Positions 987-9,047 of a stretch of 64,000 nucleotides of DNA are shown piece by piece. This stretch comes from Escherichia coli (GTDB taxonomy: Bacteria; Pseudomonadota; Gammaproteobacteria; Enterobacterales; Enterobacteriaceae). Within the stretch, counting starts at the first letter, position 1. Each line of letters starts with the position of its first letter. Both the position numbers and the translations under genes were made by a program. The notes below the pieces were generated by a model. It was given only the letters and a program-made list of their open reading frames with translations, made no database searches and was not told the origin of the DNA. The stretch lies in NCBI RefSeq assembly GCF_030384885.1, contig NZ_CP128613.1. One strand, written 5' to 3'.

Positions 987-2528
<1,542 letters not shown>

Positions 2529-2659
2529 AAAAGTTTGATGCTCAAAGAATTAAACTTCGTAATGAATTACGTGTTCACTCTTGAGACTTGGTATTCATTT
2601 TTCGTCTTGCGACGTTAAGAATCCGTATCTTCGAGTGCCCACACAGATTGTCTGATAAA

Positions 2660-2672
2660 TTGTTAAAGAGCA
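2660..2672 (-). promoter_or_regulatory. rrn leader boxA (Nus-dependent antitermination)
   Basis: Minus strand TGCTCTTTAACAA within TGCTCTTTAACAATTTATCAGACAATCTGTGTG leader. Confidence 0.75.
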
Positions 2673-2709
2673 GTGCCGCTTCGCTTTTTCTCAGCGGCGC
2701 GGGGTGTAC

Positions 2710-2737
2710 ATAATACGCTTTCCCGCTTCAGAGTCAA
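2710..2737 (-). promoter_or_regulatory. rrn P2 promoter (-35 TTGACT, -10 TATTAT)
   Basis: Minus strand reads TTGACTCTGAAGCGGGAAAGCGTATTATG; matches the known rrn P2 architecture. Confidence 0.65.
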
Positions 2738-2827
2738 GCATTTTTTTGCTTTTCTCTGTCGAGATTCTCAGGAGAACCCCGCTGACCCGGCGGCGTGTTT
2801 GCCGTTGTTCCGTGTCAGTGGTGGCGC

Positions 2828-2890
2828 ATTATAGGGAGTTATTCCGGCCTGACAAGAGGAAATTTAAAATAATTTTCCGACCGCGCATTT
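2828..2890 (-). promoter_or_regulatory. rrn P1 promoter with upstream AT-rich UP element (-35 TTGTCA, -10 TATAAT, GC-rich discriminator)
   Basis: Minus strand reads TTGTCAGGCCGGAATAACTCCCTATAATGCGCCAC, preceded by AAATTATTTTAAATTTCC. Confidence 0.7.
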
Positions 2891-3007
2891 TTTCAGCAAA
2901 AGCCCCGTTAATGTGCCATAAAACAAGCAATTTGCCGTTTTTGCAACCGTAATCACACTTCCTGGTGGCATACTAAGGAGGAATAAAAAGAAAAAGGAAG
3001 ATTAGTA

Positions 3008-3700
3008 ATGCCTTTAAGCGCACAACAGTTAGCTGCACAGAAAAACCTTTCGTATGTTCTGGCTGAGAAGCTGGCGCAACGGATCTTAAAAGGTGAATAT
3101 GAACCCGGCACCATTTTGCCTGGTGAGATTGAGCTGGGCGAGCAATTTGGAGTGAGTCGTACAGCGGTACGCGAAGCGGTTAAAACGTTAACGGCAAAAG
3201 GGATGGTTTTACCGCGACCACGAATTGGTACCCGGGTCATGCCACAATCAAACTGGAATTTTCTTGATCAGGAATTGCTTACCTGGTGGATGACAGAAGA
3301 GAACTTTCATCAGGTCATCGATCACTTTCTGGTTATGCGTATCTGTCTGGAGCCGCAAGCTTGCCTACTGGCTGCAACGGTTGGCACCGCGGAACAGAAG
3401 GCGCATCTCAATACGTTAATGGCCGAAATGGTGGCATTAAAAGAGAACTTTCGCCGTGAACGCTGGATTGAGGTCGATATGGCCTGGCATGAGCATATCT
3501 ATGAAATGAGCGCCAATCCGTTTTTGACCTCATTCGCCTCGCTCTTCCATTCGGTTTATCACACTTACTTCACGTCAATTACCAGCGACACAGTGATAAA
3601 GCTGGATCTGCACCAGGCGATTGTTGATGCGATTATCCAAAGCGATGGCGACGCGGCATTTAAAGCTTGTCAGGCGCTGCTACGCTCACCTGATAAGTGA
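3008..3700 (+). CDS. yieP: GntR/FadR-family transcriptional regulator YieP
   Basis: 230 aa ORF with N-terminal GntR helix-turn-helix (GVSRTAVREAVKTL); strong RBS AAGGAGGA upstream; K-12 synteny. Confidence 0.93.
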   Translation: MPLSAQQLAAQKNLSYVLAEKLAQRILKGEYEPGTILPGEIELGEQFGVSRTAVREAVKTLTAKGMVLPRPRIGTRVMPQSNWNFLDQELLTWWMTEENFHQVIDHFLVMRICLEPQACLLAATVGTAEQKAHLNTLMAEMVALKENFRRERWIEVDMAWHEHIYEMSANPFLTSFASLFHSVYHTYFTSITSDTVIKLDLHQAIVDAIIQSDGDAAFKACQALLRSPDK

Positions 3701-3722
3701 CACCCCGATAACAGGACATTGA

Positions 3723-5150
3723 ATGAGCGATAAAAAGAAGCGCAGTATGGCGGGTTTGCCGTGGATCGCGGCGATGGCCTTCTTCATGCAGGCACTTGAT
3801 GCCACTATTCTGAATACCGCCTTACCCGCAATCGCTCATAGCCTTAATCGTTCTCCTCTCGCGATGCAATCAGCCATCATCAGTTACACGCTGACGGTGG
3901 CGATGCTTATTCCGGTAAGCGGATGGCTAGCCGATCGCTTCGGTACGCGTCGCATATTTACCCTTGCCGTGAGTCTGTTCACATTGGGTTCTCTGGCCTG
4001 CGCACTTTCTAACTCGCTACCACAGCTGGTTGTCTTCCGGGTTATTCAGGGGATAGGTGGCGCAATGATGATGCCTGTTGCTCGGCTGGCCTTACTGCGT
4101 GCTTATCCTCGTAATGAGCTTCTTCCTGTATTGAATTTTGTCGCCATGCCGGGTCTGGTGGGGCCAATTTTAGGCCCCGTACTTGGCGGCGTGCTGGTCA
4201 CCTGGGCAACCTGGCACTGGATATTTTTAATCAATATCCCCATAGGTATTGCCGGCCTTCTTTACGCGCGCAAACATATGCCCAATTTCACCACCGCACG
4301 ACGCAGATTCGATATCACTGGCTTTTTGCTGTTTGGCCTCAGCCTTGTTCTCTTCTCAAGCGGAATAGAGCTATTCGGTGAAAAGATTGTCGCCAGTTGG
4401 ATTGCCTTGACGGTAATTGTCACCAGCATCGGGTTACTGCTTCTCTATATTCTCCATGCACGACGCACGCTAAACCCATTAATTTCATTAGATTTATTTA
4501 AAACCCGCACTTTCTCGATCGGTATAGTAGGCAATATTGCAACCCGTCTGGGGACCGGCTGTGTACCGTTCCTTATGCCATTGATGTTACAGGTAGGATT
4601 TGGTTATCAGGCGTTTATTGCCGGCTGTATGATGGCACCGACAGCGTTAGGTTCCATTATTGCAAAATCGATGGTTACCCAAGTCTTACGTCGTCTGGGC
4701 TATCGCCATACGTTAGTGGGGATCACGGTAATTATTGGGCTAATGATCGCTCAGTTCTCTTTGCAATCACCAGCAATGGCGATATGGATGCTGATCTTGC
4801 CGTTGTTTATATTAGGGATGGCTATGTCGACGCAATTTACCGCGATGAATACCATCACACTTGCCGATCTGACCGATGACAACGCCAGCAGCGGTAACAG
4901 TGTTCTGGCGGTCACGCAGCAACTGTCTATCAGTTTAGGCGTTGCTGTAAGTGCGGCCGTCCTTCGCGTTTATGAAGGGATGGAAGGCACAACGACTGTC
5001 GAACAATTCCACTATACGTTTATCACAATGGGCATTATTACTGTTGCTTCAGCAGCAATGTTCATGCTTCTGAAAACAACCGATGGTAATAATTTGATCA
5101 AAAGACAGCGTAAATCTAAGCCGAACCGCGTTCCATCAGAATCGGAGTAA
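3723..5150 (+). CDS. hsrA: MFS transporter HsrA (YieO)
   Basis: 475 aa polytopic membrane protein with MFS motifs; K-12 synteny next to rbsR. Confidence 0.93.
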
Positions 5151-6108
5151 GTTGTAATCGTTGTTGCTGAAGGGTCGGTTGGGTTATCCGATGGATGAGT
5201 ACATCAATCGCCAGCTCCCCCAGTTCATCTTTCGGTTGATGGATAGTGGTTAATGGTGGCGTCATAAAGCTTGCCAGTTCGATATCGTCATAGCCAATCA
5301 CCGCGATATCCTGCGGAACCTGTAACTCTGCCTGATATAGCGCCTGGTAAACGCCAACAGCCATAGCGTCATTTCCGGTAAAGACGGCCTGAGGACGCAG
5401 CGGATGTGATAACAGTTGGCGCATAGCGTCAAACCCGCCGTTAAATTCAAAATCACCAGTGACTTCATAGCCATCAGGAATGTTGAGACCCGCACGTTTC
5501 ATCGCCGCCCGATAACCTTCCAACCGCAGGCGCGCCGGAGTTTTATCCAGCGGGCCGGTAATACAGGCGATACGGGTATGACCTTTATCGATCAGATATT
5601 GCGTTGCTAAGTCTCCGCCCAGCAACGAGTTATCCTGAATAAGATCGCTGTCGCCATCGAACGGTGCCCAGTCCATCATCACGGTAGGCACTGTCGGATA
5701 ACGTTGCATGATTTCACGCGAAGGCTGATGCGTTTCGGTGCACAGTAACAGCAAGCCATCAACGCGTTTTTGCATCAGCGTTTCCAGATTGCGATTCATC
5801 CGCTGTTCATCGCCTTCGGTATTGCAAAGGACAAGACTATAACCGCGTTCGAAGCAGCTGCGTTCAACGCCACGCACCAGTTCAGAATAGAAAGGATTGG
5901 TACTGGCAGTGATCAACATGCCAATGGTATGTGTTTGATTGAGTTTGAGGCTACGCGCCAGAGCTGATGGCGCGTAATTGAGTTCTTTAATCGCCGCTTC
6001 AACTTTGGCGGTAATCGCTTCACTGACGAAGCGATCTTTATTGATAACGTGAGAAACTGTTGAGGTAGAAACGCCCGCCAGGCGGGCAACATCTTTCATT
6101 GTAGCCAA
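5116..6108 (-). CDS. rbsR: ribose operon repressor RbsR (LacI family)
   Basis: 330 aa, N-terminal [23 protein letters not shown] helix-turn-helix; 3' end overlaps hsrA 3' end convergently. Confidence 0.96.
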
Positions 6109-6111
6109 GCG

Positions 6112-7041
6112 TCACCTCTGCCTGTCTAAAAATGCGTCGATCTCTTCACGCCACGGTACGGAAGGTTGTGCGCCTTTACGTGTTACGGCAATCGCAGCGG
6201 CGGCATGGGCAAAACGAATCGCCTCTGGCAAAGTTTTTTCTTCCAGCAACGCCGTGATTAACGCGCCGTTAAAGGTATCTCCGGCAGCAATGGTATCGAC
6301 AGCCTGCACCCGGAATCCAGGAACGCGCTGACCTTCACCATTCACGCTAGCCCATACACCACGACTTCCTAAAGTAATCAGTACAGTACGGATACCTTTT
6401 TCATGCAGTACCTGCGCCGCTTTCGCTGCATCTTCATCATTTTCAACGCGAATACCGGTGAGCTTTTCTGCTTCCGTTTCGTTTGGCGTAATAATGTCCA
6501 CCAGTGCCAGCAGTTCGTCAGGAAGTTCGCGAGCCGGAGCCGGGTTAAGCGCAACGATAGTCTTATTTTGATGGGCGATTTTCGCCGCTGCCATCACACT
6601 TTCGAGTGGTGATTCCAGCTGCATTAATAATGCCGATGCGTTAGCAATACGCTCACGTTGCGCCTCCACCAGCGCAGGGGAAAGGGCTGCGTTAGCGCCG
6701 GCATGAATACCAATGACATTCTCACCTTCGCCATTAACAAAAATCAGCGCCACACCTGTTGATTCGCCTTTGATCACGCTCACCGGAGAAATATCGATGT
6801 TATCAGTGGCGAGCTGCTGGCGAACGCTTTCACCAATGCTGTCATCACCCGTACAGGCAATAAACGCGATATTCGCACCGCTACGCCCTGCAGCCACAGC
6901 CTGATTCGCGCCTTTGCCGCCAAATGCAACCTGATAGTGGTTACCGGTTACGGTTTCGCCTGGAGTAGGAAAAGATTGAAGATTAAGAATGTGGTCAGCA
7001 TTAATGCTGCCAAGAACAACGAGGCTGCCTGCGTTTTGCAT
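6112..7041 (-). CDS. rbsK: ribokinase
   Basis: Track ORF extends to 7068; start set to MQNAGSLVVLGSINADH to match the known 309 aa ribokinase. Confidence 0.95.
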   Translation of the reverse strand: MQNAGSLVVLGSINADHILNLQSFPTPGETVTGNHYQVAFGGKGANQAVAAGRSGANIAFIACTGDDSIGESVRQQLATDNIDISPVSVIKGESTGVALIFVNGEGENVIGIHAGANAALSPALVEAQRERIANASALLMQLESPLESVMAAAKIAHQNKTIVALNPAPARELPDELLALVDIITPNETEAEKLTGIRVENDEDAAKAAQVLHEKGIRTVLITLGSRGVWASVNGEGQRVPGFRVQAVDTIAAGDTFNGALITALLEEKTLPEAIRFAHAAAAIAVTRKGAQPSVPWREEIDAFLDRQR

Positions 7042-7166
7042 ATTCGGGATGTCCATAAAATGCGCCACCGTGTTAGGGTGGCGCGTGCCCTGCTTTTCTT
7101 TATTTTACACGTTCATCTGTCGATGACGTATTTATGTCACCATCAGGTCATACAACCTGATTAAAA

Positions 7167-8057
7167 CTACTGCTTAACAACCAGTTTCAGATCAACCGGA
7201 TACTTAGCCTGAACTTTCTCGCCTTTCAGCACTTTATCGGCGGTTTCGACGCCTTTCGCGCCAATCTGATCGGGTAGCTGAGCGATAGTCGCTGCTAGTT
7301 TGCCATCATTCACCGCTTTTTCGCCATCCGGTGTACCGTCAAATCCGACGACCATCACATCCGATTTACCAGCAGTTTGCAGCGCGCGCAGCGCGCCCAG
7401 CGCCATTTCATCATTCTGTGCGAACACAGCCTGAACATCCGGATGAGCGGTCAACAGGTTCTGCATTACGTTCAAACCTTTAGTGCGATCAAAATCGGCT
7501 GGCTGGCTGGCAAGAACATTAAACTTGTGAGCAGCAACGGCCTGCTGGAAACCTTCGCCACGCTCACGGGCTGCGGAGGTACCGGCAATGCCTTGCAGCT
7601 CGATAACTTTGGCACCTTCACCCGCTTTCTTCGCGATATAATCCCCCGCGATTTTGCCGCCCAGTACGTTATCAGAAGCAATATGGCTCACTACTTCACC
7701 TTTCGTGGCCTGGCGGTCAAGAGTGATAACCGGGATGTTCGCCTGGTTAGCCATCTTCACAGCATTACCCACTGCGTCGGAGTCGGTCGGGTTAATCAGC
7801 AGAATTTTGGTGCCGCGAACAGTTAAGTCCTGCACGTTCGCCAGCTCTTTCGCCGGATTGTTCTGGGAGTCCAGCACCACCAGGTTATAGCCGAGTTTAT
7901 CCGCCTCTTTCTGCGCGCCATCTTTCAGCGATACAAAGAACGGGTTATTAAGCGTGGAAACCACCAGCGCGATGGTGTCTTTTGCCATCGCATTCGCACT
8001 GACGGTGGCGCTTAGCGCAACAGCGGAAACCAGGGTAGCCAGTTTTTTCATGTTCAT
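7167..8057 (-). CDS. rbsB: ribose ABC transporter periplasmic binding protein
   Basis: 296 aa from [23 protein letters not shown] signal peptide; track ORF has 2 extra N-terminal codons. Confidence 0.96.
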
Positions 8058-8081
8058 ATTCAAGATGTCCTGTAGTCGTTA

Positions 8082-9047
8082 TTACTGTTTTTTGTTGTCT
8101 ACCAGCACCGCCAGCAAAATCACCACCGCTTTGACGATCATCTGGTAATAGGAGGAAACACCTAACAAATTCAATCCATTATTAAGGAAGCCAAGAATTA
8201 ATGCGCCGATCAACGTCCCAACAATGCGACCTTTTCCGCCCGCCAGACTCGTACCGCCCAGAACCACCGCAGCAATAGCATCCAGCTCATAGCCAGTCCC
8301 CGCCGTGGGTTGTGCGGAGGAGAGACGCGCCACTTCAATGATCCCGGCCAGCGATGCCAGCAGACCACAAAGAGAATAGACGATGATTTTGATTTTATTG
8401 ACGTTGATACCAGAAAGACGCGTAGCCGCTTCGTTGCCGCCCAGCGCGTAGATGTAACGCCCCAGACGCGTGTGATGCAGCATGTACCAGGCCGCGAGGA
8501 AGACAATTCCCATGATCCAGACTGGCGTCGGTACGCCCAGCGGACGACCAATACCAAACCAACCAAACAGATCGGCGTTCTCAGTAAAGCCGGTATTCAC
8601 TGGGCTACCGTTGGTATAAACCATGGTCACGCCGCGCAGTAAAAGCATCATAACCAGCGTAGCGATAAACGCCTGGACGCGACCTTTCGCTACAATCACC
8701 CCGGTTACCGCACCAATTGCGGCACCTAACGCGAGAGCAGCAGCAACAGCCACCAGCGCATTGACTTCAATGCCGACGATAGATGCAGCAACTGCGCCGG
8801 TCAGCGCCAACAGAGAACCTACTGACAAGTCGATGCCCGACGTCAGGATCACCAGCGTCATCCCGACCGCCATAATGGCATTCACCGAGGTTTGCTGGAG
8901 AATATTGAATAAGTTATTGATGGTGAAAAAGTTCGGGCTTAACGTCGAGACAATCGCGATCAGCACCAGCAGAGCGATAAGCGATTTCTGCTCCATCAGC
9001 CACGCTTTCGTGAAATAACGGCGACCAGAGACAGTCTGGGTTGTCAT
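8082..9047 (-). CDS. rbsC: ribose ABC transporter permease
   Basis: 321 aa hydrophobic ORF, operon context. Confidence 0.96.
   Translation of the reverse strand: MTTQTVSGRRYFTKAWLMEQKSLIALLVLIAIVSTLSPNFFTINNLFNILQQTSVNAIMAVGMTLVILTSGIDLSVGSLLALTGAVAASIVGIEVNALVAVAAALALGAAIGAVTGVIVAKGRVQAFIATLVMMLLLRGVTMVYTNGSPVNTGFTENADLFGWFGIGRPLGVPTPVWIMGIVFLAAWYMLHHTRLGRYIYALGGNEAATRLSGINVNKIKIIVYSLCGLLASLAGIIEVARLSSAQPTAGTGYELDAIAAVVLGGTSLAGGKGRIVGTLIGALILGFLNNGLNLLGVSSYYQMIVKAVVILLAVLVDNKKQ

Follow-up and report, generated by a model that had tools for sequence, protein, structure and literature searches.

The 35-bp convergent overlap of hsrA and rbsR in Escherichia coli: a probable by-product of gene-boundary drift at a spacer-less junction

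Introduction

Escherichia coli carries 663 overlapping pairs of adjacent genes, 75 of which are convergent (Huvet & Stumpf 2014, PMC4161906), and the accepted origin of convergent overlaps is extension of a 3′ end after a stop codon has been lost or bypassed (PMC4161906; mechanism summarised in PMC2716372). In such pairs, two genuine genes on opposite strands come to share their coding 3′ ends through movement of a stop codon; a constrained partner keeps its end, a tolerant partner is extended in another frame, and the shared stretch shows fewer synonymous changes. The pair examined here, hsrA and rbsR, is alike in each of these respects, with RbsR as the partner that keeps its end and the HsrA tail as the part that was extended, and we found no essential difference. 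What is specific to hsrA-rbsR is the route, namely the putative deletion of one nucleotide within an interlocked TTAA, such that one stop was kept and the other bypassed, possibly twice.

Closely spaced convergent genes have also been described with respect to how their transcripts end. Excludons resemble this locus in having overlapping convergent transcripts, and the ExcludonFinder study (NAR 2025, PMC12288877) explicitly lists rbsR-hsrA among 165 convergent transcript overlaps found in at least half of 58 MG1655 transcriptomes. However, what defines an excludon functionally is that expression of one gene excludes that of the other, by interference or RNase III, whereas the listing of rbsR-hsrA follows from the overlap of the coding sequences alone. 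Bidirectional intrinsic terminators and programmed RNA polymerase collisions at convergent E. coli genes have been described in a preprint (Wang, Watters, Ju & Liu, bioRxiv 10.1101/2022.10.23.513370), which concerns the same geometry, with convergent genes lying very close; head-on collisions are plausible at hsrA-rbsR as well. According to its abstract, the programmed mechanism needs an intergenic stem-loop, which positions the collisions, whereas hsrA-rbsR has neither a stem-loop nor U or A tracts, and readthrough in the hsrA sense is sensitive to Rho. Finally, Rho-dependent termination beyond stop codons (Adams et al. 2021, PMC7815308) is matched here by a BCM-sensitive region that is antisense to the neighbouring gene, and a modest C>G tract lies upstream of this region; the differences are that the region is placed at 800-nt resolution from low coverage, and that no matching region is reported for the rbsR-sense strand.

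Results

hsrA and rbsR share the last 35 bp of their coding sequences

The window is the whole stretch of E. coli DNA that was analysed, 64,000 nucleotides in length, and all positions refer to it unless K-12 is named. In both the raw sequence and the list of open reading frames, hsrA and rbsR converge and have 5116..5150 in common. The overlap itself is already known, as it is present in the reference annotation and in the published list of overlapping transcripts. The features at and next to the junction are as follows.

3008..3700, plus strand: yieP, a GntR/FadR-family regulator and the upstream operon partner of hsrA (ORF, Pfam GntR and FCD, K-12 annotation)
3723..5150, plus strand: hsrA coding sequence, 475 aa, stop TAA at 5148-5150 (ORF list, K-12 annotation)
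5116..5150, both strands: tail-to-tail overlap of the coding sequences, 35 bp
5116..6108, minus strand: rbsR coding sequence, 330 aa, TTG start, stop TAG with its complement CTA at 5116-5118 (ORF list, K-12 annotation)
5148..5150, plus strand: hsrA stop TAA, formed opposite rbsR CTT (Leu320) and the initial A of ACT (Thr321)
6112..7041, minus strand: rbsK, directly upstream of rbsR in the rbsDACBKR operon (K-12 3937294..3938223)

On the hsrA side the overlap comprises two nucleotides of codon 465, codons 466-475 and the stop (...AAG CCG AAC CGC GTT CCA TCA GAA TCG GAG TAA), and on the rbsR side two nucleotides of codon 320, codons 321-330 and the stop (...CTT ACT CCG ATT CTG ATG GAA CGC GGT TCG GCT TAG). 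The two frames are phased such that hsrA codon position 1 faces rbsR position 1, hsrA position 2 faces rbsR position 3, and hsrA position 3 faces rbsR position 2. In the K-12 MG1655 annotation, rbsR lies at 3938227..3939219 (+) and hsrA at 3939185..3940612 (-), which is the same 35-bp overlap; window and K-12 coordinates are related by w = 3944335 - x, and the 35 nt of the window and of K-12 have no differences. The gene names, coordinates and 35-bp overlap given by the first-pass annotation are therefore correct, and the comparison with K-12 that it had called for places both stops in the frames and at the positions it had proposed. The same overlap is also found in the RefSeq/PGAP annotation of a strain with a 100% match to a 901-bp query spanning the junction region, and among 5426 complete E. 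coli genomes, 5356 match at least 80% of this query. Convergent overlaps are common, with 75 in E. coli, and the hsrA-rbsR overlap is real but statistically unremarkable.

Judged by family-model matches and by orthologues in 80 species, both partners are genuine protein-coding genes. RbsR, the LacI-family repressor of the ribose operon, matches the NCBIfam equivalog NF007743 over residues 1-330 of 330 (697 bits), and the Pfam domain Peripla_BP_3 extends to residue 329 of 330; its C-terminus is fixed in position and forms part of the folded effector domain. The RbsR protein is identical to that of K-12, with 9 nucleotide differences in rbsR. The TTG start of rbsR, at 6106-6108 (-), lies 3 nt past the rbsK stop, as it does in K-12, and a weak start of this kind fits with low repressor synthesis.

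HsrA is a transporter of the 14-TM-type MFS/DHA2 class. It matches Pfam MFS_1 over residues 17-406 (E=1.8e-54) and the MdtD-subfamily model NF007799 (NCBIfam) over residues 13-465 (457 bits), the latter match ending exactly where the overlap begins. Since its NF007799 score of 457 bits exceeds the cut-off of 426, PGAP names 3723-5150 "mdtD, multidrug transporter subunit MdtD", a name that is likely to be misleading; in K-12 the gene is hsrA, a putative transporter. The sole amino-acid difference from K-12 HsrA, amid 22 nucleotide differences in hsrA, is at residue 250 (4470-4472), which is Leu in the window and Pro in K-12. hsrA is the second gene of the yieP-hsrA operon, which is described as YieP-activated and as keeping a conserved location with a 16S gene on one side and the ribose operon on the other (PMC11340327), and the yieP promoter drives the hsrA-sense transcript (PMC11340327). 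Transcription in the rbsR sense comes from the rbsK side, as part of the rbsDACBKR operon.

The spacer-less junction is conserved, but the overlap varies

To compare the junction among relatives, 80 orthologous Enterobacteriaceae loci were assembled, one genome per species, from Escherichia, Salmonella, Citrobacter, Enterobacter, Lelliottia, Leclercia, Kosakonia, Kluyvera, Atlantibacter, Buttiauxella and other genera. hsrA and rbsR converge and abut in all 80 species, with junctions that range from a 3-nt gap to a 53-bp overlap and a spacer that never exceeds 3 nt. The states and the number of species in each are listed below.

53-bp overlap: 5 of 80
35-bp overlap: 34 of 80
24-bp overlap: 1 of 80
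9-bp overlap: 6 of 80
4-bp overlap: 24 of 80
2-nt gap: 9 of 80
3-nt gap: 1 of 80

Outside the clades with long overlaps, the commonest junction consists of two interlocked stop codons (TTAA). The RbsR end LQLTPxLxxRGS[A/V]* is fixed in place except in the Lelliottia/Huaxiibacter group, and the cytoplasmic tail of HsrA past ...NLIKERH varies among species in length and in frame. Outgroup HsrA proteins end in ...NLIKERHK(K)A*, about 10 residues earlier than HsrA of the window.

The five loci with a 53-bp overlap (L031, L032, L035, L036 and L043) belong to Lelliottia, Huaxiibacter and an Enterobacter MAG. These loci have lost the rbsR stop, apparently by TAG to TCG, and their RbsR carries six additional residues (e.g. 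SAGGDL) encoded antisense to hsrA codons; the HsrA tail has the same PSEQE* ending in all five species. The 35-bp and 53-bp states thus indicate that each gene has extended into the other, in different lineages.

A one-base deletion in an interlocked double stop most likely gave rise to the overlap

Aligning the loci with the rbsR stop as anchor revealed how the classes are related. In the 24 species of the 4-bp class, the two stops are interlocked as YTAR, mostly GCTTAA on the hsrA strand, where TTA is the complement of rbsR TAA. All 35-bp sequences instead read NCT-AA (NCT AAR CCG...), where CTA is the complement of rbsR TAG. The rbsR stop is TAG in all overlap species, and the hsrA stop is TAA or TGA in the 35-bp-class sequences shown in the alignment. 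Compared with its shorter orthologues, HsrA of the 35-bp class has a reading frame displaced by 1 nt, pointing to an origin by 3′ extension, the polarity being read from the species distribution and the two-gene tree. The anchored alignment identifies one further feature.

5116..5119, both strands: CTAA, what remains of the interlocked double stop, with a TAA at 5117-5119 that is out of the hsrA frame

The 35-bp overlap therefore most likely arose by deletion of one base, as far as can be read from aligned sequences. The ancestral junction would have consisted of two interlocked stops, GCTTAA, in a 4-bp overlap; we infer that this state is ancestral from its distribution among outgroups rather than from a rooted species tree. 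Loss of one T would have converted GCTTAA to GCTAA. The rbsR stop would have survived this loss by changing from TAA to TAG as the next G was drawn in, and the hsrA frame would have shifted such that the old TAA was bypassed. Translation of hsrA would then run on for 31 nt, antisense to RbsR residues 321-330, as far as the TAA supplied by the CTT of Leu320 and the A of Thr321. This route through the TTAA double stop was worked out in the present analysis and has no literature source.

In a neighbour-joining tree of the two genes, the 35-bp state falls into two non-sister clades, one comprising Escherichia, Salmonella, Citrobacter and Intestinirhabdus and the other Enterobacter and Leclercia, with Lelliottia nested inside the latter. 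Since these clades are not sisters, the single-deletion account requires that the identical deletion occurred twice independently, that it reverted, or that the tree is poorly resolved. Taking the junction as a whole, we consider it quite probable that boundary drift between two unrelated genes that lack a spacer produced the overlap as a by-product, rather than that it is a purpose-built regulatory element.

The lineage-specific HsrA tail leaves a probable dual-coding signature in rbsR

The extension that would have resulted from this deletion is the following.

5118..5147, plus strand: HsrA residues 466-475, a C-terminal extension particular to some lineages and encoded antisense to RbsR residues 321-330

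That this tail is never made, with a true HsrA C-terminus near residue 465 and an overlap that exists on paper only, would fit with the end of the NF007799 match at residue 465 and with outgroup HsrA proteins that are about 10 residues shorter. Such an annotation artefact is contradicted by the reading frame itself, which contains no earlier in-frame hsrA stop and is backed by homology up to residue 465, and by the retention of both frame and stop position in 40 of 40 sequences with a long overlap. The K-12 and PGAP annotations also give the same hsrA end.

Each third position of rbsR lies opposite a second position of hsrA, so that constraint on the HsrA tail is expected to reduce synonymous change in rbsR. 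We therefore compared the last 11 codons of rbsR with the other 139 of its last 150, using ungapped data (10 species have an rbsR indel), in an overlap set of 40 sequences (the 39 species with a 35- or 53-bp overlap, and the window) and in a comparison set of 41 sequences without a long overlap.

Overlap set (40), third-position diversity: last 11 codons 0.25; other 139 codons 0.46
Overlap set (40), Fitch changes per site: last 11 codons 3.36; other 139 codons 8.07
Set without long overlap (41), Fitch changes per site: last 11 codons 9.27; other 139 codons 10.14

Synonymous change in rbsR was approximately 2.4-fold lower under the overlap, and only in species with a long overlap, in a test that comprises 11 codons, one of them Met, from related sequences. 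Within the overlap set, none of 128 sliding 11-codon windows was as low, and random sets gave p ~1e-4. The 41 sequences without a long overlap had no significant reduction at rbsR third positions in the last 11 codons. For the wobble position of the rbsR Leu codon on which the hsrA stop depends, parsimony gave 2 changes in overlap species versus 13 in the others.

As the slowdown of synonymous change in rbsR is limited to overlap species, the HsrA tail appears to be translated and weakly selected; this comparison of sequences suggests as much, and constraint at the RNA level could be a source of the same signal. With rbsR synonymous sites constrained beneath the tail specifically in overlap species, in addition to the retained frame and stop and the agreement between K-12 and PGAP, we rejected the notion that the overlap is an artefact of annotation, to which we give next to no credence.

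Transcripts run past the junction and hsrA-sense RNA may be ended by Rho

The first-pass annotation had stated that the two transcripts must overlap, which is forced by logic alone, and had raised the possibility of antisense interference or of shared termination signals. A hairpin within the overlap that ends both transcripts, i.e. a shared bidirectional intrinsic terminator, has a general precedent at convergent E. coli pairs in the abstract of the Wang et al. preprint, and a 4-bp stem (GAAC/GTTC) with a 3-nt loop can be drawn at 5123-5133. However, a permissive scan of 3000-8200 gave no terminator-like site on either strand between 4756 and 5915, and on the rbsR-sense strand no intrinsic-terminator-like site from the rbsR stop back to 3000. 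The only inverted repeat in 5000-5300 is a single weak pair of 9 nt (89%) at 5202-5241, away from the junction. Inspection of the sequence revealed no A-tract or U-tract flanking the junction, and the 200 nt downstream of each stop fold no more stably than shuffled sequences (z -1.8 and -0.5). A permissive Rfam scan of 2500-9000 had a single hit, in the rrn leader and thus away from the junction, and Term-seq data from three growth conditions list no 3′ end where either gene ends (Adams et al. 2021, eLife, PMC7815308).

The same study reports a Rho termination region at K-12 3938923 (-), antisense to rbsR, with a Rho score of 2.78 and p=7.6e-6 (Supplementary file 2, PMC7815308), a call made in 800-nt windows from low read counts (102/32 against 164/143). 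This position is window 5412, 262 nt beyond the hsrA stop, and it lies downstream of a tract of modest C enrichment, with a C/G ratio of 1.3-1.5 over 5271-5390 compared to 0.4-1.1 over the 120 nt that directly follow this stop.

5271..5412, plus strand: C>G tract (5271-5390) and published Rho region (5412), hsrA-sense, within rbsR antisense

Readthrough in the hsrA sense is thus BCM-sensitive, that is, Rho-dependent, and this result, together with the scan, the repeats, the folds and the Term-seq data, largely refutes a shared bidirectional terminator; we rejected it as highly improbable. Since there is neither room for nor trace of an intrinsic terminator, each mRNA must run into the other gene, and as the Rho region lies at 5412, the stretch of rbsR covered by hsrA-sense RNA is much longer than the 35 nt of shared coding sequence. 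The overlap of transcripts claimed by the first-pass annotation agrees with this region and with the ExcludonFinder listing; its shared termination signals found no counterpart near the junction, either as a terminator-like hairpin or U-tract, in the folds or as a listed Term-seq end. According to the published data, transcripts in the hsrA sense are ended by Rho approximately 260 nt inside rbsR antisense, and the 3′ end of rbsR-sense RNA is presumed, from the lack of an intrinsic-terminator-like site, to be formed by Rho or by polymerase collision.

Other termination signals lie around the locus

Several signals were noted away from the junction. On the minus strand, a perfect 8-bp hairpin (ATCGCTTC...GAAGCGAT) is located at 6035-6014, within the 5′ portion of rbsR, a published Term-seq 3′ end lies just after it at 6010 (K-12 3938325), and a published Rho region falls within rbsR at 5948 (K-12 3938387; Rho score 3.77, p=1.4e-13). 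The hairpin, the Term-seq end and the Rho region suggest that some transcripts of the rbs operon end prematurely inside rbsR, at codons ~25-55. In Klebsiella aerogenes, a rifampicin time-series study called a termination event inside rbsR, and the same study has no event for the hsrA-rbsR junction. A published Rho region is likewise found within hsrA at 4054 (+) (K-12 3940281; Rho score 2.16), ~330 nt into the gene, and suggests premature termination of yieP-hsrA transcripts there.

Further upstream in the ribose operon, the annotated sRNA RbsZ (K-12 3937045..3937278; window 7057-7290, minus strand) covers the 3′ end of rbsB and the rbsB-rbsK spacer. It has a strong intrinsic terminator at 7084-7062 and a very abundant Term-seq 3′ end at K-12 3937278, and this terminator probably limits the transcription that reaches rbsK, rbsR and hence the junction. 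On the other side of the locus, in the rrnC leader between yieP and the 16S gene, 2650-2900 (-) has a sub-threshold match to Rfam Ysr197 over the full length of the model (84 bits versus a gathering score of 167), and an abundant Term-seq 3′ end at K-12 3941692 (window 2643) lies just beyond the 3′ end of this match.

Discussion

The overlapping transcripts raise the question of whether the junction is itself regulatory. If a spacer-less junction had been kept because overlapping transcription makes the ribose operon and yieP-hsrA repress each other, by polymerase collision and/or by RNase III cleavage of the mRNA duplex, then ribose induction would lower HsrA, or YieP activation would lower RbsR. 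The presence of rbsR-hsrA in the E. coli 'excludome' of ExcludonFinder, hsrA-sense transcription that continues ~260 nt into rbsR antisense before Rho, and the lack of any terminator insulating hsrA from rbsR are all in line with this idea, and a spacer of at most 3 nt in 80 species could reflect selection for transcript overlap. However, any two expressed genes with overlapping coding sequences satisfy the ExcludonFinder criterion automatically, and the low read counts in the Rho data lead us to expect a low frequency of collision. Neither the length nor the frame of the overlap is conserved, the junction ranging from -3 to +53 nt, and such variation is expected of drift and not of a tuned element. 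In addition, the literature searched gave no reciprocal-expression, RNase III or interference data for rbsR-hsrA, and ribose use and HsrA have no known functional link. We therefore regard a selected excludon as unlikely. A broader version, in which the absence of a spacer is itself selected, a conserved excludon makes transcription of the ribose regulon and of the YieP-HsrA efflux module lower each other's expression through collision, Rho or RNase III, and the 35-bp overlap arose twice independently because it is tolerated or favoured there, seems to us a long shot. Under drift of the gene boundaries, a putative effect of the overlap on expression, by collision or by the antisense interference that the first-pass annotation had raised and that is speculative, is possible as a side effect.

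The overlap matters little beyond housekeeping. Synonymous recoding or deletion at the 3′ end of either gene changes the other protein: a clean deletion of rbsR takes away the stop and tail of HsrA, and a clean deletion of hsrA takes away the C-terminus and stop of RbsR. Since neither gene has a terminator of its own, reporter or knock-in designs at the junction will read through. More generally, the hsrA-rbsR overlap may illustrate how a single-base deletion can create a convergent overlap, with a measurable dual-coding signature.
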